DNA of 64,000 bases from a virus (IMGVR_UViG_3300009008_000023:1-64000); one strand, 5' to 3'. Shown: positions 23,475 to 51,346, counted from the stretch's first letter. Made by a program: numbers and translations. Notes: a model not told the origin generated them from the letters alone.

Positions 23475-23482
23475 GGAGATAT

Positions 23483-34705: not shown

Positions 34706-34725
34706 CTTATCACAAAGGAGTAAGT

Positions 34726-37011: not shown

Positions 37012-37099
37012 GCCAGAGTCCCATAGTGGCCGATTGGAGTACCCTTGTAAGGTACCAGGACTTAATTGCCTCGCATCGGTTCGAATCCGATCTCTGGCT
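37012..37099 (+). tRNA. atypical 88-nt tRNA with long variable arm and anticodon UGU (Thr-like)
   Basis: Acceptor GCCAGAG/CTCTGGC; Tyr-like D arm CCA-TAGTGGCCGAT-TGG; anticodon stem GTACC/GGTAC with loop CTTGTAA; 19-nt variable region; T arm ATCGGTTCGAATCCGAT. Confidence 0.55.
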
Positions 37100-37119
37100 C
37101 CTTTCATTAAGGAGAGTGA

Positions 37120-37701
37120 ATGAAAGTAACATTAGTACTGACAGCACTGCTGCTATCAATAACCAGCGCTTTTACGCTTGAACCTTTTAGGTTCTATGAT
37201 CACTTGGCCACAAGCCAAGACACTGTTCGAATACAAAATAAAGTATTTGGAAGTATAGAAAATCCTATAGTTGACGGTAATTATGGGATAATTGTCACTG
37301 ACACTCCAACTCATATTACAGGATGTACTTTCTATTTAGACGGTGGCCATGGAATTGGGGTATGGGGTGTGTATGATGACGTGTATTATTGTGTTATTAA
37401 AAACAACAATTTTGTGGTATTAGATTCTTTAAATCGTTATGTTATTAGAGTTGGACATGATTCGTCTGATGAGCCTTATACAGTTTATAATCCAATTATA
37501 ACTGGGAATGTCTTAGATTGTATTGAGGCTGACACGTATAAGCATAACCTTTTTGTAGGACATTGTATCAACCCAGTTGTTCAGTGGAACAGAGTAATGG
37601 GCTCTTCCCGCTCATTAATGCCTCGTGGCGAAATTGGCAACGCACCAGACTTTGACTCTGGTATCTCCTGGTTCGAACCCAGGCGGGGCATCCTGAATTA
37701 G
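37120..37701 (+). CDS. secreted protein with signal peptide; C-terminal 80 nt overlap tRNA-Gln
   Basis: AAGGAG RBS; signal peptide MKVTLVLTALLLSITSA; no stop until 37701. Confidence 0.45.
   Translation: MKVTLVLTALLLSITSAFTLEPFRFYDHLATSQDTVRIQNKVFGSIENPIVDGNYGIIVTDTPTHITGCTFYLDGGHGIGVWGVYDDVYYCVIKNNNFVVLDSLNRYVIRVGHDSSDEPYTVYNPIITGNVLDCIEADTYKHNLFVGHCINPVVQWNRVMGSSRSLMPRGEIGNAPDFDSGISWFEPRRGILN
37619..37691 (+). tRNA. tRNA-Gln(UUG)
   Basis: U1-A72 acceptor TGCCTCG/CGGGGCA; anticodon loop CTTTGAC; T arm CCTGGTTCGAACCCAGG. Confidence 0.65.
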
Positions 37702-37862
37702 TGGAGCGTGCATTGTATACAACGATGAACATTGCAGCTTATAGACTAGTGGAGTGTACACAAAGCTAGGTGCGGTGAACAGAGTGTAAAAACCTATGTC
37801 GCGGATAGGAATAAGCCTCAAACAACTTTGGTTGGTAGTATCCCACTAATTCACTTTTTTAC

Positions 37863-37895
37863 TTGACAAATACTAACTTGATTTCTTATATTTAG
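37863..37895 (+). promoter_or_regulatory. candidate sigma70-type promoter upstream of Hsp20 gene
   Basis: TTGACA-aatactaacttgatttc-TTATAT. Confidence 0.35.
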
Positions 37896-37963
37896 TTACA
37901 CAGCTGGATCTTATGAACGGCAGTAACTATCCACACCTTTCGGGTGGAATATAGGAGATCAAT

Positions 37964-38491
37964 ATGACTCGAAGAACACATCGTGTAAGCTTTGATAGCT
38001 TACTACCAGATTTATTTAACGAAGCACAGAACAGTGCTTTCTTAGCAACAGAAACATTATTTGATCGTGCAATACGGGACATGTTTCCTGATGCACATAA
38101 ACAACTTGGATGCTCTCTTGTAACTAAAGGGGCATATCCAAAAACTAACGTTCTTTCTTTAGAAAAAGAATTTAAGATTGAAGCGGCGGTTCCCGGTCTT
38201 ACTCGAGAAGATATTTCTATCGAGACTAAACAGACCGATATGGGGGTCGTTTTAACTATTTCTGGGGACAAGCAAGATGAAGAAAATCTTGGAGATGTAC
38301 GCACTAATTTTTATGTGTATCATGAACTCAAGAAATCTAAGTTTGCTCGTTCCTTTTTAATTCATGATAAAGAAAAAGTAGAATTAGATAAAATTGACGC
38401 CTCAATTGAAAATGGAATTCTAACTATTAGTATTCCTAAAACTGAGGCAGAGATTAAGAAAAACGAAATTAATAAAATTAACATAAAATAA
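37964..38491 (+). CDS. small heat-shock protein (Hsp20/alpha-crystallin family)
   Basis: Alpha-crystallin domain pattern: EAAVPGLTREDISIE...LTISGDK...FARSFLI...IDASIENGILTISIPK. Confidence 0.8.
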   Translation: MTRRTHRVSFDSLLPDLFNEAQNSAFLATETLFDRAIRDMFPDAHKQLGCSLVTKGAYPKTNVLSLEKEFKIEAAVPGLTREDISIETKQTDMGVVLTISGDKQDEENLGDVRTNFYVYHELKKSKFARSFLIHDKEKVELDKIDASIENGILTISIPKTEAEIKKNEINKINIK

Positions 38492-38519
38492 CACGCTGAT
38501 TTAGATCCAGCTGTGTTTT

Positions 38520-38594
38520 GGTCTGTTCGTCTAGCCCGGTCTAGGACACCTGACTTTCTCTCAGGCGACACGAGTTCAAATCTCGTACAGACTG
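38520..38594 (+). tRNA. tRNA-Glu(UUC)
   Basis: Acceptor GGTCTGT/ACAGACT; anticodon loop CTTTCTC; T loop TTCAAAT. Confidence 0.7.
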
Positions 38595-38600
38595 CCTTTT

Positions 38601-38678
38601 GGCCGAGTACGCAAACAATGAGAAGCGGCGGAAGTTGATCGCCCGTGAGTCCAGGTGTAAGCCCTGGCTCGGCCACCA
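38601..38678 (+). pseudogene. degenerate tRNA-like element (pseudo-tRNA; GUU-like anticodon, non-canonical T loop)
   Basis: Perfect acceptor GGCCGAG/CTCGGCC + A + CCA, but T loop TGTAAGC lacks T54-Psi55-C56; weak D stem; anticodon loop AAGTTGA lacks U33. Confidence 0.4.
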
Positions 38679-38684
38679 AATTAG

Positions 38685-38761
38685 AGCGCGGTAGAGTAGT
38701 GGTCCAACTCGGAGGTCTCATAAGCCTCTATTCGCGGGTTCGAATCCCGCCTGCGCCACCA
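38685..38761 (+). tRNA. tRNA-Met/Ile2(CAU)
   Basis: Anticodon loop CTCATAA; T arm GCGGGTTCGAATCCCGC; CCA encoded; possible 1-72 A/C mismatch. Confidence 0.65.
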
Positions 38762-39010
38762 TTTTTCAAGCACTAGTCTTGTAAACTAGGAACGCTGAAA
38801 TGTTACATGTGTTGGTAAAGTACGCTCAGACGTACCAGACTAGAACTATTACACCTGGCGAATCCTCACTAGATTCGTTTGCAAAATAGTCAACACCGTA
38901 ACAACTATGTCATCCCTCCTTTGTGAGGTTGCCCTTGGTTAGCGTGGGGATGTAATTGCATAAATCGCTAATCCAACTTTAAGACAGAAGACAGAAAGTA
39001 GAAAATATTA

Positions 39011-39904
39011 ATGTTAGTAAAAATTATAGATAAAAGTAAAGAAGCACTAATTCAGTGCGAACAGGCCGAATGGCAAGGTCTTCAAGACCATAACACCAAT
39101 TCCGTTATTTTGAATTTAGGCTCTAAACACGAGCCCCTGGTGTTTTCAAAAACCCAGTCTACGGCTGAAATTTATGTGATGAATGATAATGGGAAGACAA
39201 TTGATACAGTTAGATTCCCTTTGCATACTGGTACATATTCTACGGAGACGACAGAAATCCTTTGTATTATGGACCGATCTTCGTCAATGAGTTCAATTAT
39301 GCCCGAAGCGGTGAACGCATTTAATGAATTTGTACAGAAACAGAAAGCACTTCCGGGTAAAGCAAATCTTACCCTAGTTGCATTCGACAACCACTATGAA
39401 GTAAAGTATGATAGTATAGATTTAAATAGTGTGCCTTTGCTCACTATAAATCAAGTACAACCACGAGGAATGACCGCTCTTAATGATGCGATTGGTAGAA
39501 CCATTAATAGAGCAAAAGATTCACGCAAGACCATTGTTTTAATACAGACTGATGGGGAAGAAAACTGCAGCCAAGAATTTGATAATGAGCAAGTTAAAGC
39601 ACTCATTAATGCTAAAAAAGAGTTGGGCTGGGAATTTATCTTCATTGGTGCTGGTATAGATGCGTTTGATGTTGGACATAAAAATTTAGGCATTGATGTG
39701 GCAAGTTGTTACAATGTATCACATGACGCTATTGGAATGGCTGATTATACAAATACCATGACTTTTAGAACAATGGCATATCGAGATGGTAGTATTACAT
39801 CAGCAGACCTTGATATGGGAGATATTGCGTCACTTACAGTGACTGATGAAGTTCCTGAGCAATTTGAATTGAATTTAGACGACATTACTGTTGAAAAAGA
39901 ATAA
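39011..39904 (+). CDS. von Willebrand factor A (vWA) domain protein
   Basis: MIDAS motif DRSSSM (DxSxS); downstream T and D residues in vWA order. Confidence 0.7.
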   Translation: MLVKIIDKSKEALIQCEQAEWQGLQDHNTNSVILNLGSKHEPLVFSKTQSTAEIYVMNDNGKTIDTVRFPLHTGTYSTETTEILCIMDRSSSMSSIMPEAVNAFNEFVQKQKALPGKANLTLVAFDNHYEVKYDSIDLNSVPLLTINQVQPRGMTALNDAIGRTINRAKDSRKTIVLIQTDGEENCSQEFDNEQVKALINAKKELGWEFIFIGAGIDAFDVGHKNLGIDVASCYNVSHDAIGMADYTNTMTFRTMAYRDGSITSADLDMGDIASLTVTDEVPEQFELNLDDITVEKE

Positions 39905-40320
39905 AAGTACTGGTACTGTGTCCTTTGAACCGCAGTTAAACAGAGCGCAAGTGGCTTGCGGACATTTATGAGGAAAGCCACACCAGGAATTATTCACGCT
40001 GGGCCACTCCTCTCTGAGGGGTGTGTCCTCCATAAGCGCTACTCACTTCAGGCGGGTAGTTTCCCAAAGAGAGCTTTGGGAATTTAAACTCGGGTAAAAA
40101 GCCCCATAAAACTTTTTACAGAACGAGGTATCTATGAAATATTTCATATTATTCGTAGATATTTTCTGGTGGTTGAGAGATTGATCACCTTATAGATTGA
40201 AAGGTAAAAAAAGGTTTATAGTGCCGTTAGCAACCCAGAAACCTTGCTCGCGCATAGCGAAAGACCCAGGCGGATCTATGCGATAATTTCCGCGCTTGCT
40301 GTTAGGCTAATCTATTATTA
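39905..40320 (+). other. about 415-nt ORF-free structured intergenic region (possible sRNA)
   Basis: No ORF; several stable hairpins, e.g. TTCCCAAAG-agag-CTTTGGGAA. Confidence 0.3.
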
Positions 40321-40346
40321 AGGGGAGTCTAGTACTCCCCTTTTTT
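40321..40346 (+). terminator. rho-independent terminator
   Basis: AAGGGGAGT-ctagt-ACTCCCC plus T6. Confidence 0.75.
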
Positions 40347-40351
40347 ATTGC

Positions 40352-40424
40352 CGGGGAGTAGCTCAATTGGAGGAGCGGAACGTTTGGGACGTTCAGGGTG
40401 CAGGTTCGAGCCCTGCCTCTCCGA
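40352..40424 (+). tRNA. tRNA-Pro(UGG)
   Basis: C1-G72 acceptor CGGGGAG/CTCTCCG; anticodon loop TTTGGGA; T loop TTCGAGC. Confidence 0.7.
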
Positions 40425-40497
40425 TATATTTTTATTTAGTTCTTGACTTCGAATACTATTATACGTACGTTAAAGTATAAAGTAAAAGGAGTTAAGA

Positions 40498-41175
40498 ATG
40501 GCAAAACCAAATGTAAAATGTTTACAATGTGGTAAACATTTTTATAAAAAACCAATAAACATTAAATTATACCCACAACACTTTTGCAGTCGAAATTGTT
40601 TTAATAAGTACATTAAAGGTCCAGATTGTTTTTGTTTAAATTGTGGAAAGCAATTACTTAAAAAAGATCAAAAGAAATTTTGCTCAAAATCGTGCTCTGC
40701 TACTTATAACAATCAATTACGAGACAAAAGTGTTTATGATAAAGTAATTAGATCTCGTGGGGAAACAAGGCAAACAGAGCACACTAAAAAATTAAAAAAA
40801 CGAAAGTCTTTAAATAGGTGTAAAAATTGTGGTACACAAATTTGGCCAGAAAGCACATATTGCACGTCATGCAAGGACCATTTAGTTCGAATTCAATACT
40901 TAGAACGTACCCTTAAAGAAGTTACTAACAAAGATACAGTAAAGTATTGGCAACAAGTTAGAACTAATGCCCGTAGTATGATGAAACACGAATACAAAAA
41001 AGAACCGAAATGTGCAGTATGTGGGTATAAAACATATGTGGAAGTATGCCATATTAAACCAATAAAAGAATTTGAAAAAACCGCAAAAATTAAAGAGATA
41101 AACAGTAAAGATAACCTTGTGTATCTTTGCCCAAATCACCATAAAGAACTAGATTTGGGATTAATAAAACTGTGA
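40498..41175 (+). CDS. HNH endonuclease with N-terminal zinc fingers
   Basis: C-terminal CHIKPIKEF...NLVYLCPNHH; five CxxC pairs. Confidence 0.6.
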   Translation: MAKPNVKCLQCGKHFYKKPINIKLYPQHFCSRNCFNKYIKGPDCFCLNCGKQLLKKDQKKFCSKSCSATYNNQLRDKSVYDKVIRSRGETRQTEHTKKLKKRKSLNRCKNCGTQIWPESTYCTSCKDHLVRIQYLERTLKEVTNKDTVKYWQQVRTNARSMMKHEYKKEPKCAVCGYKTYVEVCHIKPIKEFEKTAKIKEINSKDNLVYLCPNHHKELDLGLIKL

Positions 41176-41200
41176 AAGTAAAACGAAACTAAGAGGAAAT

Positions 41201-41683
41201 ATGAGTGATACAAAAGCAATACACGTATTATCAGGAGGCTTTGATCCTCTACATGTAGGCCATCTACGTATGATAAAAGCTGCACATGCCTTGCAAGACC
41301 ATTGCCGGTATGGTAGCCAGCTAATTATTGGATTGAATTCTGATGATTGGCTAAGACGTAAAAAAGGTGCTAATTTTATAAACTTTGCACACCGTGCAGA
41401 ATTAATCGGTGGTTATAAAGAAGTTGATGAAGTTGTTTCGTTTGATGATTCAGACGGCACAGCTAAAGAGTTATTACGTATACTTCGAGCAAGATTTCCC
41501 GCAGATGAGTATAATATAATTTTTTGTAATGGTGGAGATCGAGTAGAAGGACATGTTCCTGAAGGAGAGTTAGCCGAAGAGTTAGATATTGAGTTTCTGT
41601 ACGGGATAGGTGGTGGAAAGATAGAAAGCTCTTCAGAACTGGTGACTAAATATTTTGCCGAAATCAATAAAAATAGCGCCTGA
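41201..41683 (+). CDS. nucleotidyltransferase of the HxGH cytidylyltransferase-like superfamily
   Basis: SGGFDPLHVGHLRMI (HxGH) motif near N-terminus. Confidence 0.6.
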   Translation: MSDTKAIHVLSGGFDPLHVGHLRMIKAAHALQDHCRYGSQLIIGLNSDDWLRRKKGANFINFAHRAELIGGYKEVDEVVSFDDSDGTAKELLRILRARFPADEYNIIFCNGGDRVEGHVPEGELAEELDIEFLYGIGGGKIESSSELVTKYFAEINKNSA

Positions 41684-42029
41684 GGATGTTAAAGAGCTCG
41701 TTGAGCTTTTAACTAACTCAGTAAAAATAACAGACGAAACTAAATCAAATACAGTAACACTTATTAAAGACTTGTATGAACAAGTAATTATATTACGCCT
41801 AGAACTAGAATTACAAAGAAAACATCAGCAACTTAGTGACTTTGAACATATTTTATACAAAAAAATGTACCTTATTAAATATGACACGATGGATTTACTA
41901 ACAATTAATACAGCCTTAGAAGGTGTAGAAAAAGCTATACAATGGGCAAAGAACGACGCGAGAGACTTAAAGAAGCCAATACCTGAAAACATAAACCCGG
42001 AGGATTATATTGACTACTTCAACGACTAG
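41655..42029 (+). CDS. hypothetical protein (124 aa), start uncertain
   Basis: ORF overlapping upstream gene. Confidence 0.3.
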   Translation: MPKSIKIAPEDVKELVELLTNSVKITDETKSNTVTLIKDLYEQVIILRLELELQRKHQQLSDFEHILYKKMYLIKYDTMDLLTINTALEGVEKAIQWAKNDARDLKKPIPENINPEDYIDYFND

Positions 42030-42393
42030 ACTTAATTTCGATCTAGCAGAAATGGAAATGCTAGATCGCCTCCACAAACTTTCACGAGATAATAAAGATA
42101 TGCTTCAGTCTGTAGGAGAAGGAGTGTGTTTTTATTGTGGGAAAACTTGTAAATACGAAGACGTTAAGGAATGGGTAGGCAAACATAGTCAAACGGGAAT
42201 GTGCCCTCATTGTGGCATTGACTCAATTATGCCTGTGTATGCGCCTTACATCAAGTCTGAAAAGATTGTCGGAATGATGATGGTTCGTTGGTTCACGACT
42301 GTTAATGAAGATGATACGTTAACTGTTGAACCTGATGCCCTCATCCCAGAACGCTGGAAACAATGGTATAAGAACTATACCGTCGAAGATTAA
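42010..42393 (+). CDS. hypothetical Cys-containing protein (127 aa)
   Basis: CFYCGK...CPHCG zinc-ribbon-like. Confidence 0.35.
   Translation: MTTSTTRLNFDLAEMEMLDRLHKLSRDNKDMLQSVGEGVCFYCGKTCKYEDVKEWVGKHSQTGMCPHCGIDSIMPVYAPYIKSEKIVGMMMVRWFTTVNEDDTLTVEPDALIPERWKQWYKNYTVED
42361..42380 (+). promoter_or_regulatory. phage promoter motif (caaTGGTATAAGAACTATACC) inside CDS 42010..42393
   Basis: Core match within coding sequence; could serve downstream gene 42474 or be fortuitous. Confidence 0.3.
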
Positions 42394-42473
42394 TTAAAAT
42401 TTATTAACATAAACATCTAAGGAGGTGCAGTCATGACTATTACAAAACTATAGATACCTATAGGAGGTAAATC

Positions 42474-42692
42474 ATGGCTGACCAACAGCAGAAAAAGATC
42501 CCTAAGGGCGGTAAGTGCTTACGTCGTTGTGGCAAAGGACATTACAAGGAGTATCGTAATGAGAACCGCAAGCTCAACAACAAAGCTCGTCGCCTTGCTC
42601 GTCGCATCCGTAACTACAAGAACCCTATCGGGTTCCTCAACGGAGTGAATGACGATCTGCGTGTTAAAGTTATCAAAATCCTCGGCTTATAG
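42474..42692 (+). CDS. hypothetical small basic protein (72 aa)
   Basis: GGAGG RBS; Arg/Lys-rich. Confidence 0.35.
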   Translation: MADQQQKKIPKGGKCLRRCGKGHYKEYRNENRKLNNKARRLARRIRNYKNPIGFLNGVNDDLRVKVIKILGL

Positions 42693-42702
42693 CCTAGGTG
42701 AA

Positions 42703-42784
42703 GCGGGTGTCCTCTAATGGCCAGGAGACTAGCCTTCCAAGCTAGCGCAGAAATGCATTGAGAGTTCGAATCTCTTCACCCGCT
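42703..42784 (+). tRNA. atypical 82-nt tRNA, anticodon UCC (Gly-like) with 14-nt GAAA-capped variable hairpin
   Basis: Acceptor GCGGGTG/CACCCGC; D arm CTCT-AATGGCCA-GGAG; anticodon stem CTAGC/GCTAG, loop CTTCCAA; variable CGCA-GAAA-TGCATT; T arm GAGAGTTCGAATCTCTT. Confidence 0.55.
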
Positions 42785-42804
42785 CCTACACAAAAGGAGA
42801 AAGA

Positions 42805-43083
42805 ATGTTATCAGGACAAGGAAACGAGTTAATAGATACCCAAGAACCGCTTTATAAAATTTACGATGAAGATACTGGGTTATTCTCTTCAGGTGGAAAT
42901 TCTGGGTGGAGTAGAGCAGGGAAAGTATGGACTGCCAGAACTTTAAAGCTACATTTAGCGAACGGGCGCTCAAACTATCCTGATTCTGCACGTATTATAG
43001 AACTTACGTTAAACGCAGCAGCGGTGCTGCCAGTTACACGTGAAGCACTAGACAGACATACTCTGTATGCTAGATTTGATTGA
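42805..43083 (+). CDS. hypothetical protein (92 aa)
   Basis: AAGGAG RBS. Confidence 0.35.
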   Translation: MLSGQGNELIDTQEPLYKIYDEDTGLFSSGGNSGWSRAGKVWTARTLKLHLANGRSNYPDSARIIELTLNAAAVLPVTREALDRHTLYARFD

Positions 43084-43154
43084 ACCCATAGCCAAGTGAT
43101 TAAGGCAGTGGATTGCAACCCCACTATGCGCTGGTTTAAATCCAGCTGGGTTCT
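43082..43154 (+). tRNA. tRNA-Cys(GCA)
   Basis: Acceptor GAACCCA/TGGGTTC; anticodon loop TTGCAAC; T arm GCTGGTTTAAATCCAGC. Confidence 0.6.
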
Positions 43155-43306
43155 CCTTAACTTATAAGGAGCTTAAATGAATTGGATAAAAATTTTAGGT
43201 TGGGTTAGAGTTATTATGTATGATATAATTTATGCCAGTTTATATTTTATGTTCTTACACTGGTTTTTTACACGAATTGTGTGGCCTTCGTTAGCCCCGT
43301 AAATAT

Positions 43307-43358
43307 GGCGAATGCGTCTGCAGCGTGGAAAAGCGGGTTCGATTCCCGTCATTCGCCC
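43307..43358 (+). pseudogene. truncated mini tRNA-like element (acceptor + T arm only, about 52 nt)
   Basis: GGCGAAT...GCGGGTTCGATTCCCGT-c-ATTCGCC with only 19 nt where D and anticodon arms should be. Confidence 0.4.
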
Positions 43359-43359
43359 T

Positions 43360-43433
43360 GAGGCCGTAGCTCAAATGGTTAGAGCCCTGGATTGTGGATC
43401 CAGAGGTTGTGGATTCGAATTCCACCGGTCTCC
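43360..43433 (+). tRNA. tRNA-His(GUG)
   Basis: Anticodon loop TTGTGGA; T arm GTGGATTCGAATTCCAC; C73. Confidence 0.7.
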
Positions 43434-43437
43434 CCAA

Positions 43438-43509
43438 GGGCCTGTAGCTCCAACGGTAGAGCTCCTGCTTTGCAAGCAGGATGTTACCAGTTCGAATCTG
43501 GTCAGGTCC
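43438..43509 (+). tRNA. tRNA-Ala(UGC)
   Basis: G3-U70 in acceptor GGGCCTG/CAGGTCC; anticodon loop TTTGCAA; T loop TTCGAAT; A73. Confidence 0.8.
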
Positions 43510-43691
43510 ACCGAATTAAACAAAGAGGTAAAGAAGATGTATAATAAATTCATAAGAAGTATCTTATGCTTTTTACGTATTCATGGTCCTCGATCACCGC
43601 TGTATAAAACAGACAGAGGCGTGTATAATCAGTGCCGCTGGTGTGATAAACCAATACTGGTATATAAATTTGATCAACCAAAAAAATATTT

Positions 43692-43916: not shown

Positions 43917-43918
43917 AA

Positions 43919-44965
43919 ATGGAAAGAGCGTTGGCGAGCATTCAAAGAATTGATGCTCTCGATCCTATTGAAGGTGCCGACCGAATTGAAGTAGCCACCA
44001 TCTTAGGGTGGAAAGTAATTGTTAAAAAAGGTGAGTTTCAAGTCGGTGATAAATGTATCTATTGTGAAATAGATAGTGTATTACCTGCAGATAACCCTGA
44101 ATTTGAGTTTATGCAAGCTCGAAGTAAAGGCCGTGTAAAGACCATGCGTATGCGTGGTGTGCTGTCTCAGGGGATTGCATTCCCTATGAAAGTATTACAC
44201 GATCAACTAGTGGGCGAATTACAATGGATTATGCCCGCTGATGTTAATCAGATTGATCAAGATGTCACTGACCTTTTAGGCATCACAAAATACGAACCGC
44301 CTGCTGACTTCAAACAAGGTGCAAGCAAAGGTACATTCCCTGGGTTTATTCCCAAAACAGACGAACTCCGACTTCAGTCTAAGCCCGAACTACTAGAAGA
44401 ACTTGCAGGTGAGCGTTACGTTATTACTATAAAAGTAGATGGAACATCTGCCACTTTCTTTTGGCATGATGGTGAGTTTGGCGTGTGTTCACGTAATATG
44501 GAAAAGAAGCTTGATGGAAACAGTGTTTATTCACGAATTGCTAAAGAATACAAACTCCAAGAAATTCTTGAGGACATTGAACGCGAAACGGGCATTGAAT
44601 TAGCACTCCAAGGCGAAATTGCTGGACCTGGAATTCAGAAGAATCCTTTGGGTCTTAAAGAGCTCCAATTATTCTTATTCACTGGTTTTAACATCCGAGA
44701 AGGTAAATACTTAGATCATTTAGAGTTCAGTGAATTATGCACTCGTTGGGAACTGCCAATGGTATATGTAGCAGAGTATGGAGCTGAATTTAAACACACA
44801 CTTGAGTCTCTTCTAGAGCTTGCTAAAGGTAAGTACCTAGGAACAGATAATAACCGTGAAGGTATCGTTATCCGCCCGTTCCGTGAAATGGTTAGTAAAC
44901 GTTTACATGGTAGACTTTCTTTTAAAGTAATAAATAATGATTTTCTTGAAAAAGGAGAAGAGTAG
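43919..44965 (+). CDS. ATP-dependent polynucleotide (RNA/DNA) ligase-like nucleotidyltransferase
   Basis: Motif I ITIKVDGTSATF (KxDG); downstream motifs partially recognisable. Confidence 0.5.
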   Translation: MERALASIQRIDALDPIEGADRIEVATILGWKVIVKKGEFQVGDKCIYCEIDSVLPADNPEFEFMQARSKGRVKTMRMRGVLSQGIAFPMKVLHDQLVGELQWIMPADVNQIDQDVTDLLGITKYEPPADFKQGASKGTFPGFIPKTDELRLQSKPELLEELAGERYVITIKVDGTSATFFWHDGEFGVCSRNMEKKLDGNSVYSRIAKEYKLQEILEDIERETGIELALQGEIAGPGIQKNPLGLKELQLFLFTGFNIREGKYLDHLEFSELCTRWELPMVYVAEYGAEFKHTLESLLELAKGKYLGTDNNREGIVIRPFREMVSKRLHGRLSFKVINNDFLEKGEE

Positions 44966-44968
44966 TAC

Positions 44969-45568
44969 ATGGCTGTTAAAAAAGTAGTAGCTAAGAAAAA
45001 AGTAGATAAAAAGAAGATTGTAAAAGAAAAGCACAAGCTTGAGTTGTCTCCGACTGATGCAGAGGTTACTGTTTTAAAAACTATGTCCTTACGAGAAGCT
45101 AGAGCAGCTTTTCCGGACATAGCGGAACTACTTACTGCCGAGAACATGGAAGCCGTATTCCCACAGCGCGGGTATTACAATCAGTATCCTTCCTTAGAAT
45201 CAGTTACACAACAGTTTGAAGGACAAATTCAAAATGCGGTGGCTACCTTAAGAAGACTTGAAGAGGAAGCCGCCCTAGCACTGAGGTTATCTGTAGTTTT
45301 ACATCCTCAGACTAAGTGGGATCGTTACAACCGTCATATTAAACTTCGAGTGGTCCCTTCTCCTGAGCAGCAAGCTCGTCTAGAAACGAAGCGTGCTCAG
45401 AAGGCAGCGGAGCGTGAAGCCAAGCGTAGACGTGAAGCAGTTGCCAAAGCTAAAACTAACAAAAGGCGACTGGAAAAAATCCGTAAAGAACAGGCAGAGC
45501 TTGAGGCTGATCTGGCTTTAGCAGACGAACTACAGAGGGTGGAGGATGAAGGTGGCGGAAACGTATAA
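44969..45568 (+). CDS. hypothetical Lys-rich protein (199 aa)
   Basis: Basic termini; coiled-coil C-terminus. Confidence 0.35.
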   Translation: MAVKKVVAKKKVDKKKIVKEKHKLELSPTDAEVTVLKTMSLREARAAFPDIAELLTAENMEAVFPQRGYYNQYPSLESVTQQFEGQIQNAVATLRRLEEEAALALRLSVVLHPQTKWDRYNRHIKLRVVPSPEQQARLETKRAQKAAEREAKRRREAVAKAKTNKRRLEKIRKEQAELEADLALADELQRVEDEGGGNV

Positions 45569-46016
45569 CGAAAAACTTTTGGCAAGTAAACAGGATACTT
45601 TAGGGCATGTAATGTTGCTCACTAATTTTATTGAGATCTTTTGCAATAAAATGAGAGAACGAGCATCAGTACATGATCAGAGTAAACTTGAAACCCCTGA
45701 AGTGGAGTCGTTTGCGAATGCCGATAAACTCAATACTATTGAGTTTGGGTCTGATGCTTATAAAGAAGCCCTAGCAGAGTTAGGACCAGCATTAGAACAC
45801 CACTATGAGAACAACGACCATCATCCTGAACATCATCCAAATGGTGTTGAGGATATGGACCTCATGCAGATAGTTGAAATGCTGTTAGATTGGTATGCGT
45901 CAACTCATAGAATGAAAGACGGTGATATAATGAAGAGTATAGAGATTAACTCTGAACGCTTTAATATGTCACCACAGTTACGGAGTATTCTTGAGAATAC
46001 TATCAAAAGGTTATAA
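45546..46016 (+). CDS. hypothetical His-rich protein (156 aa)
   Basis: HHYENNDHHPEHHPNG cluster, possible metal binding. Confidence 0.35.
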   Translation: MKVAETYNEKLLASKQDTLGHVMLLTNFIEIFCNKMRERASVHDQSKLETPEVESFANADKLNTIEFGSDAYKEALAELGPALEHHYENNDHHPEHHPNGVEDMDLMQIVEMLLDWYASTHRMKDGDIMKSIEINSERFNMSPQLRSILENTIKRL

Positions 46017-46372
46017 TGTGGGTTTTAATCGGACATTATAACGCACATTATCCTGAAGAAGATTATGATGAGAATGTAGCTCTTTTTTATTCCCGTGAAG
46101 ATGCGGAACAATATGAAAAAGATTCAAGGATGAGAGCTTTTAAACGAATTCGTTTAAGAGGAGACAAGCCTAACTACAGGAAAATATCATTACTTCGTGG
46201 GTACGATAGCGCTTCAGTAGAAGAATATGAAGTGGAAGATTTACCCATTGACCCAATTCCTATCACCGAGTTTTCACAAAGTGTTGCTAAGTTCGTACGT
46301 AGAAACCATGTACAAACAGATGAACATTGGTCTCACCAAGAAATTATTAAAAACGAAATAAAGGAAGATTAA
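46016..46372 (+). CDS. hypothetical protein (118 aa)
   Basis: ORF; last 10 nt overlap tRNA-Ser. Confidence 0.35.
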   Translation: MWVLIGHYNAHYPEEDYDENVALFYSREDAEQYEKDSRMRAFKRIRLRGDKPNYRKISLLRGYDSASVEEYEVEDLPIDPIPITEFSQSVAKFVRRNHVQTDEHWSHQEIIKNEIKED

Positions 46373-46448
46373 CGTAACTGGTAACGTAGCGTCTTGCTAA
46401 GTCGCCGCCCGAAAGGGCTTCCTAGTTCGAGTCCAGGATCTTCCGCCA
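46363..46448 (+). tRNA. tRNA-Ser(GCU), type II
   Basis: Acceptor GGAAGAT/ATCTTCC; anticodon loop TTGCTAA; variable CGCCC-GAAA-GGGC; G73; CCA encoded. Confidence 0.7.
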
Positions 46449-46464
46449 CTAACTAAAGGGGAAA

Positions 46465-46905
46465 ATGTCAGCGAAGCGTAAAGCTATTAAGCAAGTACTT
46501 AATATTAAAGAAGAAGTAGTTGAAGCAGATGATCCGCGTATTCATGTTTGTAGATTCTGCAAACGCCCTGGCATCCTTTTAACAGGGTATAATGGGTATG
46601 GATTTTATACTCTTGCTAAGCATGGAAAAAAGTATAAAACTACGAAAACTGTTAATCATCATGCTTCAAAAGCAGAGTGGGCTTTAAAATGTAAAGAAGC
46701 TCAATATGCAGAAATGAAGAAAAATAAAGAAAAAAGAATTAAAAAGCTAGAGTTGGAGCGTGAAAAGAAGAAGAAAGAAGCTGAAAAAGCTGCGAAAGCT
46801 AAGGCTAAAGAGAAGAAGACTCCTAAAAAGGAGGACAAGAAAGAGCCTAAGAAGGCTAAGAAAAAAGTTGTAAAAAAAGCCAAAAAAGGCTTGATTAATT
46901 TATGA
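46465..46905 (+). CDS. hypothetical DNA-binding-like protein with poly-Lys tail
   Basis: CRFCKRPG zinc motif; C-terminal KKEAEKAAKAKAKEKK. Confidence 0.4.
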   Translation: MSAKRKAIKQVLNIKEEVVEADDPRIHVCRFCKRPGILLTGYNGYGFYTLAKHGKKYKTTKTVNHHASKAEWALKCKEAQYAEMKKNKEKRIKKLELEREKKKKEAEKAAKAKAKEKKTPKKEDKKEPKKAKKKVVKKAKKGLINL

Positions 46906-46951
46906 GTACGAGTACATTAAAGTTACACTCATAAACTTAACCATTCAATTT

Positions 46952-47287
46952 ATGAACTATTTAGTTTCCCTAAGAGTTGACGAAGATCAACTCAAAAAGA
47001 ATGATCTAGAATTACAGAGTAACCTAGAATTAGAAGTATTTTATGTAATTGTAAGAGACATTCAATGTACAGCAGATGTATTTGAGTACCTGTATGAATG
47101 GCTAGATGATGAAGATTGCTTATTAACTAATATTCCTGAGTTACCTTTCTCTATTGGAATGGCTATTATTCCAACTGAAGAAGAAGTCGAAAATTTAATT
47201 AATACACTAGAGCCCATTATTGCAATATTAAATGAGCCTGAGAGCGATACTCCACAGCTAGATAGCATCGTAAGATTAGTGCAGTAA
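46952..47287 (+). CDS. hypothetical acidic protein (111 aa)
   Basis: ORF. Confidence 0.35.
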   Translation: MNYLVSLRVDEDQLKKNDLELQSNLELEVFYVIVRDIQCTADVFEYLYEWLDDEDCLLTNIPELPFSIGMAIIPTEEEVENLINTLEPIIAILNEPESDTPQLDSIVRLVQ

Positions 47288-47299
47288 CCAAGATCTTAC

Positions 47300-47387
47300 G
47301 CTCGGATGGCGGAATTGGTAGACGCGCCGGCCTTAGAAGCCGGTGTCTGTAATGGGCGTGTGGGTTCGACTCCCACTCCGAGCACCA
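47300..47387 (+). tRNA. tRNA-Leu(UAG), type II
   Basis: GCTCGGATGGCGGAATTGGTAGACGCG...; anticodon loop CTTAGAA; 16-nt variable arm; A73; CCA encoded. Confidence 0.8.
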
Positions 47388-47412
47388 GAGAAAGCTTAAC
47401 CATTCAGTAATT

Positions 47413-47607
47413 ATGATTCAGTGGATTAAAAACATATTTTCAAAATCTTCGAATGAGGCCGATTTGGACTCATTAACTCAAGAAGAACTTGAAGAATTAT
47501 TAATACCAGCTATATTTGCTGCAATTAAAGATGGCACTTTTACTTCAAAACACCTTGATAATAAATGGGTTAGAAAGTATTTTGCCATACAACGTTTGAA
47601 TAAATAA
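47413..47607 (+). CDS. hypothetical protein (64 aa)
   Basis: ORF. Confidence 0.3.
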   Translation: MIQWIKNIFSKSSNEADLDSLTQEELEELLIPAIFAAIKDGTFTSKHLDNKWVRKYFAIQRLNK

Positions 47608-47619
47608 ACCACATACACT

Positions 47620-48651
47620 ATGAATATAAAAAGTGATGTGTTATTTGGTCTCCAATACGGGGATGAAGGAAAAGGTAAATGTGCTAAATATTTACAAGAA
47701 AACCCCACTTGGGGGCCAAACTATACACATATCGTTAGATTTAATGGCGGCCCTAACGCCGGTCATACCTTCTATCATGAAGGTGAAAAACTTGTAACAC
47801 ATCAACTTCCCTTCCCATATAAACCGCATACTATTGCGATGATTGGATCTGGGTGTGTTGTACATCCAGATACTTTTTTGGAAGAAGTTGAACTGTTTTC
47901 AAAAACATTAAATACTGATGTTGCAAAGAGAATTAAAGTGGCATATAATGCTCACATAATTACTGAAAAACATCGGGAAATTGATGAAAAAGATACTATT
48001 ATAGGAACTACAAAGCGGGGTATTGGTCCCTGCTATTCTGATAAGGCTTTGCGGAAAAAATACTTACGCGCAGAAACACACCCAGTCTTTAAAGAATTTT
48101 TGTGTGACCCCATTACTGAGTTAAATCAAGATGGAAATCAAATTCTTTTTGAGGGTGCGCAAGGGTTTTATTTAGATGTAGATCATGGAGATTACCCTTA
48201 TGTAACATCAAGCTCTGTACTTCCTAGTAATGCATTCTCTACAGGTTTATCGCCTAAAACGTTAGGCCATGTTTGGGGAATAGCAAAAGTTTATGAGACA
48301 TATGTAGGAACTAAAAACTTTACAGACGACTGTGAGCCAGAGGATCTAGAGATTTTTGATAAACTTGCTGACGCTGGTAATGAGTTTGGTGCCACTACAG
48401 GTCGTAGACGTAAAGTAAACTATTTAAATTTAGATCGTTTAATTAAAGCTTGTATGGTATCTGGAGTTGATTCTCTAATCTTTAATAAAGCAGATGTTTT
48501 ACTTGAAGTTAATAAATATAAACTTTATTATAAAGATGAGCTTAAGGTTTTTGATTCTTTGAATCACTTTAAGTTATTTGTGAGCGAGATCTTACGATCA
48601 CAGCTAGACTTACCTACTATTATATTTTCAGGGAATAAGGTGACTGTATGA
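47620..48651 (+). CDS. purA: adenylosuccinate synthetase (PurA)
   Basis: GLQYGDEGKGK P-loop, GGPNAGHT, TTKRGIGPCYSDK motifs. Confidence 0.85.
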   Translation: MNIKSDVLFGLQYGDEGKGKCAKYLQENPTWGPNYTHIVRFNGGPNAGHTFYHEGEKLVTHQLPFPYKPHTIAMIGSGCVVHPDTFLEEVELFSKTLNTDVAKRIKVAYNAHIITEKHREIDEKDTIIGTTKRGIGPCYSDKALRKKYLRAETHPVFKEFLCDPITELNQDGNQILFEGAQGFYLDVDHGDYPYVTSSSVLPSNAFSTGLSPKTLGHVWGIAKVYETYVGTKNFTDDCEPEDLEIFDKLADAGNEFGATTGRRRKVNYLNLDRLIKACMVSGVDSLIFNKADVLLEVNKYKLYYKDELKVFDSLNHFKLFVSEILRSQLDLPTIIFSGNKVTV

Positions 48652-49007
48652 AAGATCCTACAAAACCTGAACCATCTAGCTTTGAATTAAGCTTCGATGC
48701 AAATACAGGATCTGTTACATATAATACGGAATATACACTTAATGATGGAACAACCATTAAGGATGTCTTTGGAGATCCGCTTATAGGTGTTGACCCTGCA
48801 ACGGGGTCTACTGCTGGAGTGGTTCATGATCCAAACATATTGGTATCAGGAGGATACTATCCTTTCGTTGGAAGCGGTCCTATAATGGATCCTATGTACG
48901 AACCTCCAGTCACTAAAGATGATCTAAATGAGCTCTCTAAAGCTATTATCATGTTGATGGATGAAGTCCGTGAACTAAAGAAAGAAGTTCAAGGCCGAAA
49001 AGAGTAA
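48648..49007 (+). CDS. hypothetical protein (119 aa)
   Basis: ORF overlapping purA stop. Confidence 0.35.
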   Translation: MKDPTKPEPSSFELSFDANTGSVTYNTEYTLNDGTTIKDVFGDPLIGVDPATGSTAGVVHDPNILVSGGYYPFVGSGPIMDPMYEPPVTKDDLNELSKAIIMLMDEVRELKKEVQGRKE

Positions 49008-49010
49008 GTT

Positions 49011-49286
49011 ATGATGGATTATGGAAACAAAGAGAGTTTTAAAGACACCATGAGAGATACTGTTGATGACGTAGAATTCCTTCGAGCGGAGTTAAATAGA
49101 CAAATCCACGAAAATAAGTGGGTGCATGAGGATCTTCAAGACAGTTTAATCGAACTTGAAACTATAGTAACAAAAAGTAATACAGAAAAGAATGATGTGA
49201 TTTGTAAAGCATTAGTACTTTTGTTGTCTGAGATCACTAGTATTAAAGAGATGTTAAATACTGCTTTAGAGCAGAACTTAAAGTAA
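49011..49286 (+). CDS. hypothetical protein (91 aa)
   Basis: ORF. Confidence 0.3.
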   Translation: MMDYGNKESFKDTMRDTVDDVEFLRAELNRQIHENKWVHEDLQDSLIELETIVTKSNTEKNDVICKALVLLLSEITSIKEMLNTALEQNLK

Positions 49287-49506
49287 TTTGTTGACCAATT
49301 AGATATACACCCTCAGGTGAATTCTAAAGTCCCTTCAAATTTATAGACACATATTTTAACCGTAAGGTTATAGGTTTATGTTTCGTAAACCACGATGGCT
49401 TAAAGTTCTTCATACTGAAAGCTAAATAATTAATTACTTTATTATTATTCTCATGTTAGAAGCACTAAGACTAACATTCTAATAATAAGAAATAATTAAT
49501 TATTCA

Positions 49507-49536
49507 CCGAAATCTGACAATTTCGGAATGTATAAT
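49507..49536 (+). promoter_or_regulatory. perfect 7-bp-arm palindrome CCGAAAT-ctgaca-ATTTCGG adjacent to TG-TATAAT; candidate operator/promoter
   Basis: Hairpin/operator overlapping a -10-like TATAAT 20 nt upstream of ATG 49535. Confidence 0.35.
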
Positions 49537-49777
49537 GAGAGAGGGAACTATGGCATTTAATGAAATGTGGGAACAGTTTGGAGTATTCAAATTATGTTTT
49601 GGATGTGTTCATGACTGCAAAGCCCACGGAAGTACTTTGAGTATTTGGTGCCCAAAGTATGAGAAAGACCAGAATTTATTAGGGCAGGATTTAACTGTCT
49701 ATGGAAATAAACCTGGCAACAGAAACCGACAATTACGTCGTATTATTACATATTTAAAGGAGTTAGAATTAGAATAA
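49535..49777 (+). CDS. hypothetical Cys-rich protein (80 aa)
   Basis: ORF with GAGAGGG RBS. Confidence 0.3.
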   Translation: MREGTMAFNEMWEQFGVFKLCFGCVHDCKAHGSTLSIWCPKYEKDQNLLGQDLTVYGNKPGNRNRQLRRIITYLKELELE

Positions 49778-50007
49778 TGGTTGTAACAGACACAAAGGTA
49801 ACAGGTAATGTTCATTGGTTTAGCCCGAAGTTAGGGTATGGATTTATAGAATATGATGATGAAGGTAGTATGGTGTCCATTTTTGTGCATTATTCTGAAG
49901 TTCAAATGGAAGGATATAAAAAGCTCAAGAGAGGCCAAGAAGTATCCTTTACTATTAAAGACACTGACAAAGGCATGCAGGCTTTTGGAGTGGAACCCAC
50001 AGCTTAA
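49777..50007 (+). CDS. cold-shock protein (CspA family)
   Basis: GNVHWFSPKLGYGFIEY...IFVHYSEV...G..LKRGQEVSF cold-shock domain with RNP1/RNP2 motifs. Confidence 0.85.
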   Translation: MVVTDTKVTGNVHWFSPKLGYGFIEYDDEGSMVSIFVHYSEVQMEGYKKLKRGQEVSFTIKDTDKGMQAFGVEPTA

Positions 50008-50019
50008 CCAACGGAAAAC

Positions 50020-50583
50020 ATGGATAAAGATTTGCGTTTAAAAGAAGTTGATTTTGGAATTGATTCTAGTAGACGCGTTATTTATCTGAATGATGAAATA
50101 ACTCTTAGTACTCCTACGTTTTTGATGGATAGGATAAATTTAATTGTTGATTTATCAGAAGATGATAAAAGCCCAATTTCAGTATTCCTTTCATCAAATG
50201 GCGGGGATATTTATGGAATGTTTGGAACTATGGATGTCATTAAAAGCGTAGATATTCCAATTAATGTCTACGCTTTTGGGACAGCTACTTCAGCAGCAGG
50301 AATGATACTAATTTCTACGACTGGGTTACGTGTGCTAACTCCTCAGAGTTATGTTATGCTACATACCGTGCAAGTAGAATTTTCAGGGTCCGCTCCTGCA
50401 ATTTCTAATGAAGCAGGACATACAGATGATATACATCATCGTTTTGTTACAATTTGTACTGAATGTTCAAATAAAGATGAAGAGTTTTGGGACGCTACAC
50501 TGCGCACTGAATCATATTTTAATGCAGAAGAATGTTTAGAGTTAGGCTTAATAGATAAGATTCATAATGGCAAACAAACTTAA
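50020..50583 (+). CDS. ClpP-family serine protease
   Basis: SSNGGDIYGMFGTMDVIK...AFGTATSAAGMIL...MLHTVQ catalytic Ser/His regions in ClpP order. Confidence 0.65.
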   Translation: MDKDLRLKEVDFGIDSSRRVIYLNDEITLSTPTFLMDRINLIVDLSEDDKSPISVFLSSNGGDIYGMFGTMDVIKSVDIPINVYAFGTATSAAGMILISTTGLRVLTPQSYVMLHTVQVEFSGSAPAISNEAGHTDDIHHRFVTICTECSNKDEEFWDATLRTESYFNAEECLELGLIDKIHNGKQT

Positions 50584-50926
50584 AAAAGTAAAGAAAGTAA
50601 AAGCCGTAGCCAAGACTAAACGCATACGAAGGACTAAAGCAGAAATTAATGCTGGAGTCACTTTGGAAAGTAAAAAGGCGCCTAAAAAGAAACCTGCCAC
50701 TAATCAGAAAAAAGTGGTAAAAGAAGCAACTACGAAAAAAGCTACTAAGAAAACAAAAGATGACAACGATGTAGTTGAAGGAAAATTTAGAAAACTTACA
50801 GTATTGAAAGATAAACCGATTAAATTACGTGTATTAAATAAAGTAATTAATGAGGGTTGGGAATTTTGCTTTACGCAAGATTGTCTTGGTGGTTTTGAAA
50901 TAATCTTTCAGAAATCAAAAGAATAA
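50567..50926 (+). CDS. hypothetical Lys-rich protein (119 aa)
   Basis: KKVKKVKAVAKTKRIRRTK basic N-terminus. Confidence 0.35.
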   Translation: MANKLKKVKKVKAVAKTKRIRRTKAEINAGVTLESKKAPKKKPATNQKKVVKEATTKKATKKTKDDNDVVEGKFRKLTVLKDKPIKLRVLNKVINEGWEFCFTQDCLGGFEIIFQKSKE

Positions 50927-50927
50927 C

Positions 50928-51155
50928 GTGGAAGAAAATACACAAAATACTGATCAGATGAAGGCTCTAGAGGAAGTAAAACAGAAGATACTTAAACATC
51001 CTGGAGTCCAACAAGCTAGAGAACAGTATATTATTAAAGTGACTACTCGTCTTGAGGAAGTTCTAAAACTTCATTTTGATGAGCAAGAGAATAGAGAAAA
51101 ATTTAATAAAATTACCAAAGAAATACGTGCTTATATAGAAGAGTTACACACGTAA
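50928..51155 (+). CDS. hypothetical protein (75 aa)
   Basis: ORF. Confidence 0.3.
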   Translation: MEENTQNTDQMKALEEVKQKILKHPGVQQAREQYIIKVTTRLEEVLKLHFDEQENREKFNKITKEIRAYIEELHT

Positions 51156-51175
51156 TTTGGTATAAGAAGTATGAA
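51150..51175 (+). promoter_or_regulatory. phage promoter motif (taattTGGTATAAGAAGTATGAAG)
   Basis: Consensus match incl. ATG. Confidence 0.6.
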
Positions 51176-51239
51176 GGCTTTTGTCGAAATCGCCTATAAA
51201 AATCGACATGGAGCAGGGAGTCTCAACAGACTCTGCATC

Positions 51240-51264
51240 GGGGGGACGAAAGTCTCCCCTTTAT
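51240..51264 (+). terminator. rho-independent terminator
   Basis: GGGGGGAC-gaaa-GTCTCCCC plus TTTATT. Confidence 0.7.
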
Positions 51265-51346
51265 TCACACGTAGCTAAGTTGGTATAGCAGCGGCCTGTT
51301 AAGCCGCCGGAGAAATCCATCGGAGGTTCGAGTCCTTCCGTGTGAG
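51265..51346 (+). tRNA. tRNA-Asn(GUU) with atypical 14-nt GAAA-capped variable hairpin
   Basis: Acceptor TCACACG/CGTGTGA; D arm GCTAAGTTGGTATAGC; anticodon loop CTGTTAA; variable CGGA-GAAA-TCCATC; T arm GGAGGTTCGAGTCCTTC. Confidence 0.6.

Follow-up and report, generated by a model that had tools for sequence, protein, structure and literature searches.

Background

Transfer RNAs (tRNAs) that phages encode and that counter host defences are already known as a kind. [quoted passage not shown] The specificity of AriB also uses elements beyond the anticodon stem-loop, and a contact with D-loop positions 16-17 has been modelled (PMC12409363). Similarly, the cuts that retron-Eco7 and Septu make in tRNA-Tyr lie in its variable arm, and the T5 tRNA-Tyr escapes by means of a distinct variable loop (PMC13096335). 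The toxSAS toxin FaRel2 selects tRNA-Gly and tRNA-Thr (PMC11245113). Explanations of escape have so far invoked point changes close to the cleavage site. Here we describe three tRNA genes in a stretch of viral DNA of 64,000 nucleotides (IMGVR_UViG_3300009008_000023:1-64000, the whole of which is referred to below as the window). These genes, for tRNA-Thr(UGU), tRNA-Gly(UCC) and tRNA-Asn(GUU), belong to class I isoacceptors and carry a whole extra arm of the class II type, a feature that is common in phages and almost absent from cells.

Three tRNA genes with an additional arm

ARAGORN identifies 22 tRNA genes on the + strand of the window between 33.7 and 54.3 kb. The three genes under study, all in this orientation, are tRNA-Thr(UGU) at 37012..37099 (88 nt up to the discriminator U73; ARAGORN 37012-37101), tRNA-Gly(UCC) at 42703..42784 (82 nt up to U73; ARAGORN 42703-42786) and tRNA-Asn(GUU) at 51265..51346 (82 nt up to G73; ARAGORN 51265-51348). 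Their anticodons lie at 37046-37048, 42736-42738 and 51298-51300, respectively, and agree with those given in the first-pass annotation. All three belong to the Rfam tRNA family RF00005, with scores of 47.3 (Thr), 54.1 (Gly) and 61.6 bits (Asn) compared with a gathering score of 29, and each covers the full model (1-71); the ARAGORN cloverleaves are in agreement. Neither an alternative anticodon arm nor a pseudogene-like score, the two outcomes that the first-pass annotation had named as contrary to its proposal, appeared in the Rfam alignment and scores or in the ARAGORN calls. In particular, UGU stays the anticodon of the Thr gene in the Rfam alignment, and the additional nucleotides form a 16-nt insertion in the variable region.

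The variable regions are 19 nt in tRNA-Thr (37056..37074, CAGGACTTAATTGCCTCGC), 14 nt in tRNA-Gly (42746..42759, C-GCA-GAAA-TGC-ATT) and 14 nt in tRNA-Asn (51308..51321, C-GGA-GAAA-TCC-ATC), all on the + strand. The Gly and Asn sequences, which form 3-bp stems capped by GAAA, are as first read. The Gly arm was assigned by parsing the sequence and from the minimum free energy (MFE) fold, the Asn arm by parsing and from a stem that covaries across 16 sequences, and the Thr arm by parsing and family comparison. ARAGORN draws a fifth arm in each of the three cloverleaves, and the MFE folds of tRNA-Gly and tRNA-Asn are five-arm cloverleaves (z = -2.9 for Asn). The MFE fold of tRNA-Thr is not a five-arm cloverleaf and shows no such arm, so that the Thr arm depends on family comparison and is the least certain of the three. 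It can be written C-AGG-ACTTAATTG-CCT-CGC, a 3-bp stem with an enlarged 9-nt loop and a possible additional C-G pair, and its head C and tail CGC agree with the pattern of the tRNA-Thr(UGU) family described below.

Class II architecture has been defined by a variable region of more than 10 nt with a helical stem of 3-7 bp (definition quoted in PMC11245113). The three regions (19, 14 and 14 nt), whose 3-bp stems covary in relatives, fall within this definition, and the arm is placed between positions 45 and 46, where class II tRNAs hold their long arm. The proposal that class I isoacceptors here carry a class-II-type arm is thus borne out by ARAGORN, by the Rfam scores and by the lengths of the variable regions. 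The D arms differ among the three genes. That of tRNA-Thr, described in the first-pass annotation as Tyr-like, is indeed class-II-like, with a 3-bp stem (CCA/TGG) and an 11-nt loop (TAGTGGCCGAT). The tRNA-Gly D stem permits a 3-bp reading, its fourth pair being a U13-G22 wobble, and tRNA-Asn has an ordinary 4-bp stem with an 8-nt loop of the class I type. The last variable base matches position 15 in both mini-arm genes (U48 with A15, a Levitt pair, in tRNA-Gly; C48 with G15 in tRNA-Asn).

The arm-bearing genes are the only Thr, Gly and Asn tRNAs in the set of 22 (33764-54301). This set has no tRNA-Tyr or tRNA-Trp and includes a tRNA-Ile(UAU) at 53527. A further gene found by ARAGORN, tRNA-Ser(GCU) at 46363..46448 (+ strand), belongs to a canonical class II isoacceptor and has a short arm, C-GCCC-GAAA-GGGC-TT, with the same GAAA cap as the Gly and Asn arms, a 4-bp stem, and a U-U mismatch in the anticodon stem; it is absent from the Rfam results even at E <= 1. 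The 47-bit tRNA-Thr gene at 37012 was missed by the default Rfam filters with the gathering threshold, and appears when more permissive filters are applied. Given this miss, long-arm phage tRNAs may be under-called and under-annotated.

Decoding and identity

According to published identity rules, tRNA-Asn is recognized by its anticodon and G73, bacterial tRNA-Gly by U73, G1-C72, C2-G71, C35 and C36, tRNA-Thr by acceptor pairs and the anticodon, and tRNA-Leu and tRNA-Tyr by A73; bacterial tRNA-Ser conserves G1-C72 and G2-C71 (PMC9976931). Judged by sequence, each window gene carries the elements of its cognate synthetase. The Asn gene has GUU and G73, as do 14 of the 16 aligned arm-bearing tRNA-Asn sequences. 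All five glycine elements are present in the Gly gene and in four viral relatives, together with G3-C70. The Thr gene has G1-C72, C2-G71, G35 and U36 (GCC.../...GGC with UGU).

The first-pass annotation had raised the possibility of mischarging or recoding, in which the arm recruits seryl-tRNA synthetase (SerRS), or LeuRS or TyrRS, so that a different amino acid is inserted at Asn, Gly or Thr codons. SerRS relies chiefly on the variable arm, tRNA-Asn shares G73 with tRNA-Ser, and the nev-tRNAs of nematodes are a case of this type (PMC3333845). However, the discriminators of the three genes are U (Thr), U (Gly) and G (Asn); the A73 of tRNA-Leu and tRNA-Tyr is lacking, and tRNA-Tyr also needs U35 where the Thr gene has G35. 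U73 in the Thr and Gly genes likewise fails the SerRS rules. The Asn gene shares G73 but has U1-A72, C2-G71 and, like the other two genes, an arm of only 3 bp, and the Ser-type pairs G1-C72 and G2-C71 are mostly missing from arm-bearing tRNA-Asn (G2-C71 occurs in only 3 of 16).

Codon usage points in the same direction. The window encodes an RtcB RNA ligase (23438..24739, + strand; Pfam PF01139, E = 3e-115), which we aligned with 117 homologues, taking columns with at least 80% consensus. All 7 such columns in which GGA stands are Gly columns, all 4 with ACA are Thr columns, and 6 of the 9 with AAY are Asn columns; none of these codons is found at a Ser, Leu or Tyr column of this alignment. 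GGA also encodes the invariant glycines of the RtcB GSRGxG and PurA GDEGKGK motifs. In addition, the T5 tRNA-Thr and tRNA-Asn function in E. coli, where they restore growth once the host Thr and Asn tRNAs are cut (PMC12409363). Given the cognate identity elements and the codons at conserved Gly, Thr and Asn columns, recoding or mischarging is not supported; we regard this explanation as largely refuted and give it hardly any weight.

Recurrence of the GAAA-capped arm among viral tRNAs

Searching viral contigs with a pattern derived for tRNA-Asn (CTGTTAA-N5-C-N3-GAAA-N3-AT-N6-TTCGA) gave matches in 13 contigs, and all 13 are tRNA-Asn(GUU) genes of highly divergent sequence. The Gly version of the pattern gave five matches, four of which are independent tRNA-Gly(UCC) genes with the same module. 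An isotype-agnostic scan, with CT-N3-AA in place of the anticodon loop, left the six stem bases free and did not require complementarity. It matched 77 loci, consisting of 39 tRNA genes and 38 non-tRNA sequences. All three stem pairs are complementary in 39 of 39 tRNA matches and in 0 of 38 others, which agrees with the earlier impression of a recurrent, designed-looking module rather than an accident.

The module, C-NNN-GAAA-NNN-AU-N, therefore occurs in 39 viral tRNA genes of ten isoacceptor types: Asn(GUU) (13 contigs), Gln(UUG) and Lys(CUU) (5 each), Gly(UCC) and Tyr (4 each), Leu, Thr and Arg(ACG) (2 each), and Trp and Met (1 each). The first-pass annotation had suggested a search of related phages for such arms, and GAAA-capped arms are also present in a tRNA-Asn of T5 and a tRNA-Thr of Cronobacter phage GAP32, as described below.

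For 16 arm-bearing tRNA-Asn sequences (the 13 viral examples and three from contigs of metagenome-assembled genomes, MAGs), RNAalifold predicts a cloverleaf with five arms. In 9 of the 16 sequences, compensatory changes are seen at two of the three arm pairs; the first pair of the arm is G-C throughout. Covariation between positions 15 and 48 is perfect (G15:C48 in 13 sequences, A15:U48 in 3), and the Gly extra-arm tRNAs obey the same rule. The covariation of 15 with 48, combined with the pairing in the arm, indicates that the hairpin is an insertion into an otherwise intact class I core at the class II site.

The tRNA-Thr(UGU) family

Relatives of the Thr gene were identified in viral contigs with a pattern for the D arm and anticodon loop only (TAGYGGYYGATTGNANNNNNYTTGTAA), so that the variable region was not part of the selection. 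The scan matched at least 119 viral contigs. Among the matches listed there are 77 unique tRNA-Thr(UGU) sequences, to which the following counts refer; the family is a very common one in phages. The variable region is 11-21 nt long in all 77, and U73 is present in 72. The acceptor ends are GCC/GGC in 46 and GCT/AGC in 20. In the 36 sequences with a 14-nt variable region, a 3-bp stem is present in 35, with 15 distinct stem sequences, and the loop is GNRA in 26, of which 13 are GAAA; the tails are C(A/G/C/T)C. Heads and tails in the family follow the form N-stem-loop-stem-C(A/G/C/T)C.

The arm might have a neutral or historical origin, either by descent from class II scaffolds or as a tolerated insertion. 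The Tyr- or Leu-like D arm of the Thr family would fit such a descent, and armless, class-I-like tRNA-Leu genes in the same phage sets suggest that tRNA architecture is relaxed in these genomes. Against this, pairing in the arm is kept through many compensatory changes in very divergent phages, where a neutral insert would decay. We therefore consider a neutral origin improbable.

A strict coupling between the class-II-like D arm and the variable arm was also considered. It is seen in 77 of 77 listed tRNA-Thr(UGU) sequences, but is broken by a tRNA-Gly(UCC) of Cellulophaga phage phi4:1 (L219 1494-1568). This tRNA has a class-II-like D arm (GCA / TAGCGGCCTAT / TGC) and a variable loop of only 4 nt, and its anticodon stem is that of the Thr(UGU) family, which suggests that phage Thr and Gly tRNAs have switched anticodons, with loss or gain of the arm.

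Distribution among cells, phages and isoacceptors

The Asn pattern was also searched in 596 Gb of bacterial and archaeal sequence (185,579 species, one genome per species), where it gave only three matches. Each match is a tRNA-Asn gene with the arm, located on a MAG contig within a densely packed tRNA array. One of these, in a MAG of Chloroflexota BroJett021 (BOKO01000013.1; L038), lies among 24 tRNAs in 4.6 kb of a 165-kb contig; this array, though in a cellular bin, may derive from a mobile element or a phage. As a rough inference from the number of chance matches, the viral collection is about a tenth of 596 Gb, which would make the density in viral contigs tens of times higher. The extra-arm families are widespread among phages and essentially phage-restricted.

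We estimated how often each isoacceptor carries an arm from 116 loci obtained by the Thr scan, which are unselected for other isoacceptors, counting variable regions of at least 9 nt as long. Long regions occur in Cys (7/24), Ile(UAU) (5/21), Lys (6/34), Asn(GUU) (6/35), Pro(UGG) (6/35), Val(UAC) (3/20), Gly (4/44) and Gln(UUG) (3/36), and in none of the Asp (0/32) or Glu (0/37) genes. Two tRNA-Glu(UUC) genes with 12-13-nt variable regions are present in an earlier set. An association of the arm with tRNAs for ANN codons was considered and rejected, since Cys, Pro, Val, Gly, Gln and His tRNAs in this less biased sample bear arms as well. The arm-bearing copy is the only one in 61 locus/isoacceptor cases, the window among them, and is accompanied by a canonical copy in 10.

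This distribution bears on the explanation that the GNRA hairpin does no more than stabilize, or speed the folding of, phage tRNAs that are made quickly and are perhaps under-modified, with no role in defence. GNRA tetraloops and G-C closing pairs, as seen in 26 of the 36 listed Thr loops and in the invariant first pair of tRNA-Asn, are stability motifs, the arm is present on many isoacceptors, and in the Thr family the D stem that goes with it is weakened, at 3 bp. Conversely, cellular tRNAs of the same isoacceptors do without it, as the search of cellular genomes shows, the D stem has its normal 4 bp in mini-arm tRNA-Asn and, if a wobble is counted as the fourth pair, in mini-arm tRNA-Gly, and Asp and Glu lack the arm in the 116 loci, the two earlier tRNA-Glu(UUC) genes notwithstanding. 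The T5 members moreover coincide with two of the three main targets of AriB. Reinforcement of structure as the sole function seems to us unlikely, though it deserves some weight.

Extra-arm tRNAs are also found in cultured phages. The tRNA-Thr of GAP32 has the arm C-GGG-GAAA-CCC-ATT, and Pseudomonas phage HPP-Temi has an extra-arm tRNA-Thr of 87 nt. T5 tRNA-Thr(UGU) is 87 nt long, with a 3-bp D stem and the arm GGA-GUAA-UCC, and T5 tRNA-Asn(GUU) is 83 nt long with the arm GUC-GAAA-GAC. These tRNAs fold as five-arm cloverleaves and are annotated in databases as plain tRNA-Thr or tRNA-Asn. A whole extra-arm tRNA is too insensitive a BLAST query, as it retrieves canonical tRNAs with a gap at the arm; a 37-nt query consisting of D arm and anticodon led to T5.

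HNH genes adjoin the extra-arm tRNA-Thr genes in GAP32 and HPP-Temi. The arm might accordingly protect at the level of DNA, in that a 10-bp insertion in the sole part of a tRNA gene that tolerates insertions would break the target site of a homing endonuclease. An HNH-like open reading frame (ORF) lies within 100 bp of 22 of 188 long-arm tRNAs compared with 57 of 804 short-arm tRNAs. However, this enrichment is weak and confounded by locus sampling, and the conserved RNA features (the GNRA loop, the 15-48 covariation and the fixed flanks) point to selection on the RNA. DNA-level protection thus appears quite improbable.

Other tRNAs of unusual architecture were observed in the same phages. In HPP-Temi an annotated 88-nt 'tRNA-Phe' (L217 3094-3181) adjoins the arm-bearing tRNA-Thr; according to ARAGORN its anticodon is AAA, its variable region is long and its first acceptor pair is mismatched. 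The converse architecture, a class-I-like tRNA-Leu of 75-79 nt with a variable loop of only 5-7 nt and A73, is common in the tRNA arrays that hold extra-arm tRNAs (loci L021, L022, L028, L030, L034 and L070; T5, L218 755-831 and L220 16050-16126). Several phage tRNA-Ile(UAU) genes have variable regions of 22-26 nt (L022 7444-7538, L030 12394-12488, L085, L114, L142 and L179). Their arm stem covaries (GCGC/GCGC, GCTC/GAGC, GCAC/GTGC, GCGG/CCGC) around a conserved loop, CAGAUUA, which includes GAU, the anticodon of the major tRNA-Ile. This loop might serve as a surrogate recognition element for IleRS.

Relation to tRNA-targeting defences

Around the AriB cut site, T5 tRNA-Thr retains the host U39-C40-A41 and T5 tRNA-Asn the host U39-C40-C41, and in both the extra arm lies 3-4 nt downstream of the cut. 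By contrast, T5 tRNA-Lys lacks an arm but carries mutations at 39 and 41. This difference is our chief ground for favouring immune evasion by a reshaped tRNA body. The extra arm of the T5 tRNAs goes unmentioned in the PARIS papers: the word 'variable' is absent from the main texts of PMC12409363 and of the Nature PARIS paper, and 'insertion' and 'longer' are absent from PMC12409363. The suggestion in the first-pass annotation that an arm could alter nuclease recognition draws indirect support from this system, where the extra-arm tRNA-Thr and tRNA-Asn belong, with tRNA-Lys, to the set that rescues cells from PARIS.

We give about even weight to the reading that the three loci are functional phage tRNA genes, normal in decoding, whose reshaped body evades tRNA-targeting host defences. 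Each tRNA would insert its cognate amino acid (Thr at ACA, Gly at GGA/GGG, Asn at AAY); each retains the elements for its cognate synthetase and a normal tertiary core (the 15-48 pair, the T loop and the 7/5 acceptor/T stack), with a short hairpin inserted between 45 and 46. The genes fall into two phage families: the mini-arm module N-3 bp-GNRA-3 bp-AUY, present on many isoacceptors, and tRNA-Thr(UGU) with its class-II-like D arm. Host effectors that target tRNAs would bind or cut the arm-bearing tRNAs poorly, with no loss of acceptance by synthetase, EF-Tu and ribosome. As candidates for such effectors we name Toprim nucleases, for instance PARIS AriB with its cut at 40|41 and modelled contact at D-loop 16-17, and nucleases of the PtuAB/Septu type that cut variable arms. 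By analogy with T5, the extra arm itself may be the resistance determinant, and this marine phage would then presumably face such a tRNA nuclease.

More tentatively, the hairpin could be a modular 'armour' that blocks, sterically or geometrically, effectors that read the tRNA body near the anticodon stem and hinge, remodelling of this kind being a general and so far unrecognized anti-defence strategy of phages; we think this possible but short of probable. Remodelling would then run in both directions, giving class I isoacceptors (Thr, Asn, Gly, Lys, Gln, Cys, Pro and Ile) a class II form and tRNA-Leu a class I form.

Several points weigh against evasion by means of the arm. The PARIS authors ascribe escape to substitutions near the cleavage site (PMC12409363), and the window tRNA-Asn and tRNA-Thr differ from the E. 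coli AriB site at 39-41, so that sequence change alone could explain any escape. The tRNA-Lys(UUU) of the window has no arm, and arms also occur on isoacceptors for which no matching nuclease is known (Cys, Pro, Ile(UAU), Val, Gln, Trp and Gly). Phages with both canonical and arm-bearing copies fit a specialization, without showing of what kind. The link from arm to resistance is one that we infer.

If the arm is a resistance determinant, it would be part of the reason why large phages carry their own tRNA sets. It would also provide a simple sequence signature that predicts which host tRNAs are attacked, and a natural design rule for nuclease-resistant or orthogonal tRNAs.

Genes for T5 and GAP32 tRNAs have long been present in databases. 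In the literature searched we found no description of class I phage tRNAs with a variable arm, although an early remark in the T5 tRNA sequencing papers of the 1980s is possible. Relative to that literature, the class-II-type arm on class I isoacceptors as a widespread phage trait, nearly confined to phages and coincident with the PARIS-neutralizing T5 tRNAs, appears to be new.

Phage genome context

Within the tRNA region, the window encodes an RNA ligase with a PHA02142 OB fold and an RNA_ligase domain (43919..44965, + strand; Pfam, gene table). The RtcB gene suggests that the phage carries a capacity for tRNA repair. The arm could in principle be a handle that marks tRNAs for a phage enzyme (for modification, for repair by RtcB or the RNA ligase, or for processing), or that spares them from a phage nuclease that destroys host tRNAs. 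The two ligases and the conservation of the arm loop and flanks (GAAA, C...AUY) are consistent with this explanation. However, the phages that carry such arms are very diverse and no common neighbouring protein was seen among them, and plasmid-borne T5 tRNAs are by themselves able to rescue E. coli (PMC12409363), so that a phage protein is not required for their function. A handle for a phage factor is thus doubtful, with a small chance of being correct, and evasion of host effectors by a reshaped tRNA body is the reading that we prefer.

The window also encodes a NadR-like protein and an adenylosuccinate synthetase, as well as a fused RNA polymerase beta-beta' ORF of 2,020 amino acids (55236-61298, - strand), for which the best matches in cultured phages, Vibrio phages D181, D148 and D69, are about 29% identical. 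The phage has no close cultured relative: megablast of the tRNA region against cultured phages gave no match, and relatives identified through the RNA ligase are only 36-50% identical and have no homologous tRNA array. The same phage is present in several metagenome samples (ENA, JGI and Logan assemblies), and an exact-protein look-up returned only this phage.

An amber-suppressor-type tRNA with the anticodon CUA is located at 34629-34706 (+ strand; Rfam 58.6 bits). Reassignment of TAG, which this tRNA brought to mind, was rejected, as reading TAG as sense adds few codons to most ORFs of the window. The RNA ligase ORF stops at a TAG (44963-44965), and the next ORF (44969-45568, 199 amino acids) is in the same frame. 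Suppression of this TAG by the tRNA(CUA) would yield a 549-amino-acid fusion (43919-45568, + strand), an arrangement that could be coincidence.

Comparison with known systems

The bacterial allo-tRNAs (PMC5389517) resemble the window tRNAs in their long variable arms, diverse anticodons, and mobile or defence contexts. However, in allo-tRNAs the acceptor/T stems are 8/4 or 9/3 and the identity is that of Ser or Ala, and the window tRNAs have the canonical 7/5 arrangement and cognate identity. The nematode nev-tRNAs (PMC3333845) also combine an arm-bearing body with the anticodon of a class I amino acid (Gly or Ile). These are eukaryotic, derived from tRNA-Leu and charged with Leu, whereas the identity elements and codon usage of the window tRNAs indicate cognate charging.

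The class II tRNAs (Leu, Ser, bacterial Tyr and Sec) share with the window genes a helical arm between 45 and 46 and a variable region of more than 10 nt, and in the Thr family also the 3-bp D stem and long D loop. The window genes differ in their Thr, Gly and Asn anticodons and identity, in their minimal arms (3 bp; tetraloop), and, in tRNA-Asn, in the class I D arm.

The anti-defence phage tRNAs (T5 tRNA-Lys, tRNA-Thr and tRNA-Asn against PARIS AriB, T5 tRNA-Tyr against retron-Eco7 PtuAB, and anticodon-loop variants; PMC12409363, PMC11464382, PMC13096335, PMC10264068) are like the window tRNAs in that they keep cognate decoding and differ from host tRNAs outside the identity elements. Their described determinants are point substitutions in the anticodon stem-loop or an altered loop in an existing arm; in the window it is a whole arm that is added, and a role in defence would follow by analogy. 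Among the T5 tRNAs, both the Thr(UGU) and the Asn(GUU) tRNA have the same extra-arm architecture as the window genes.

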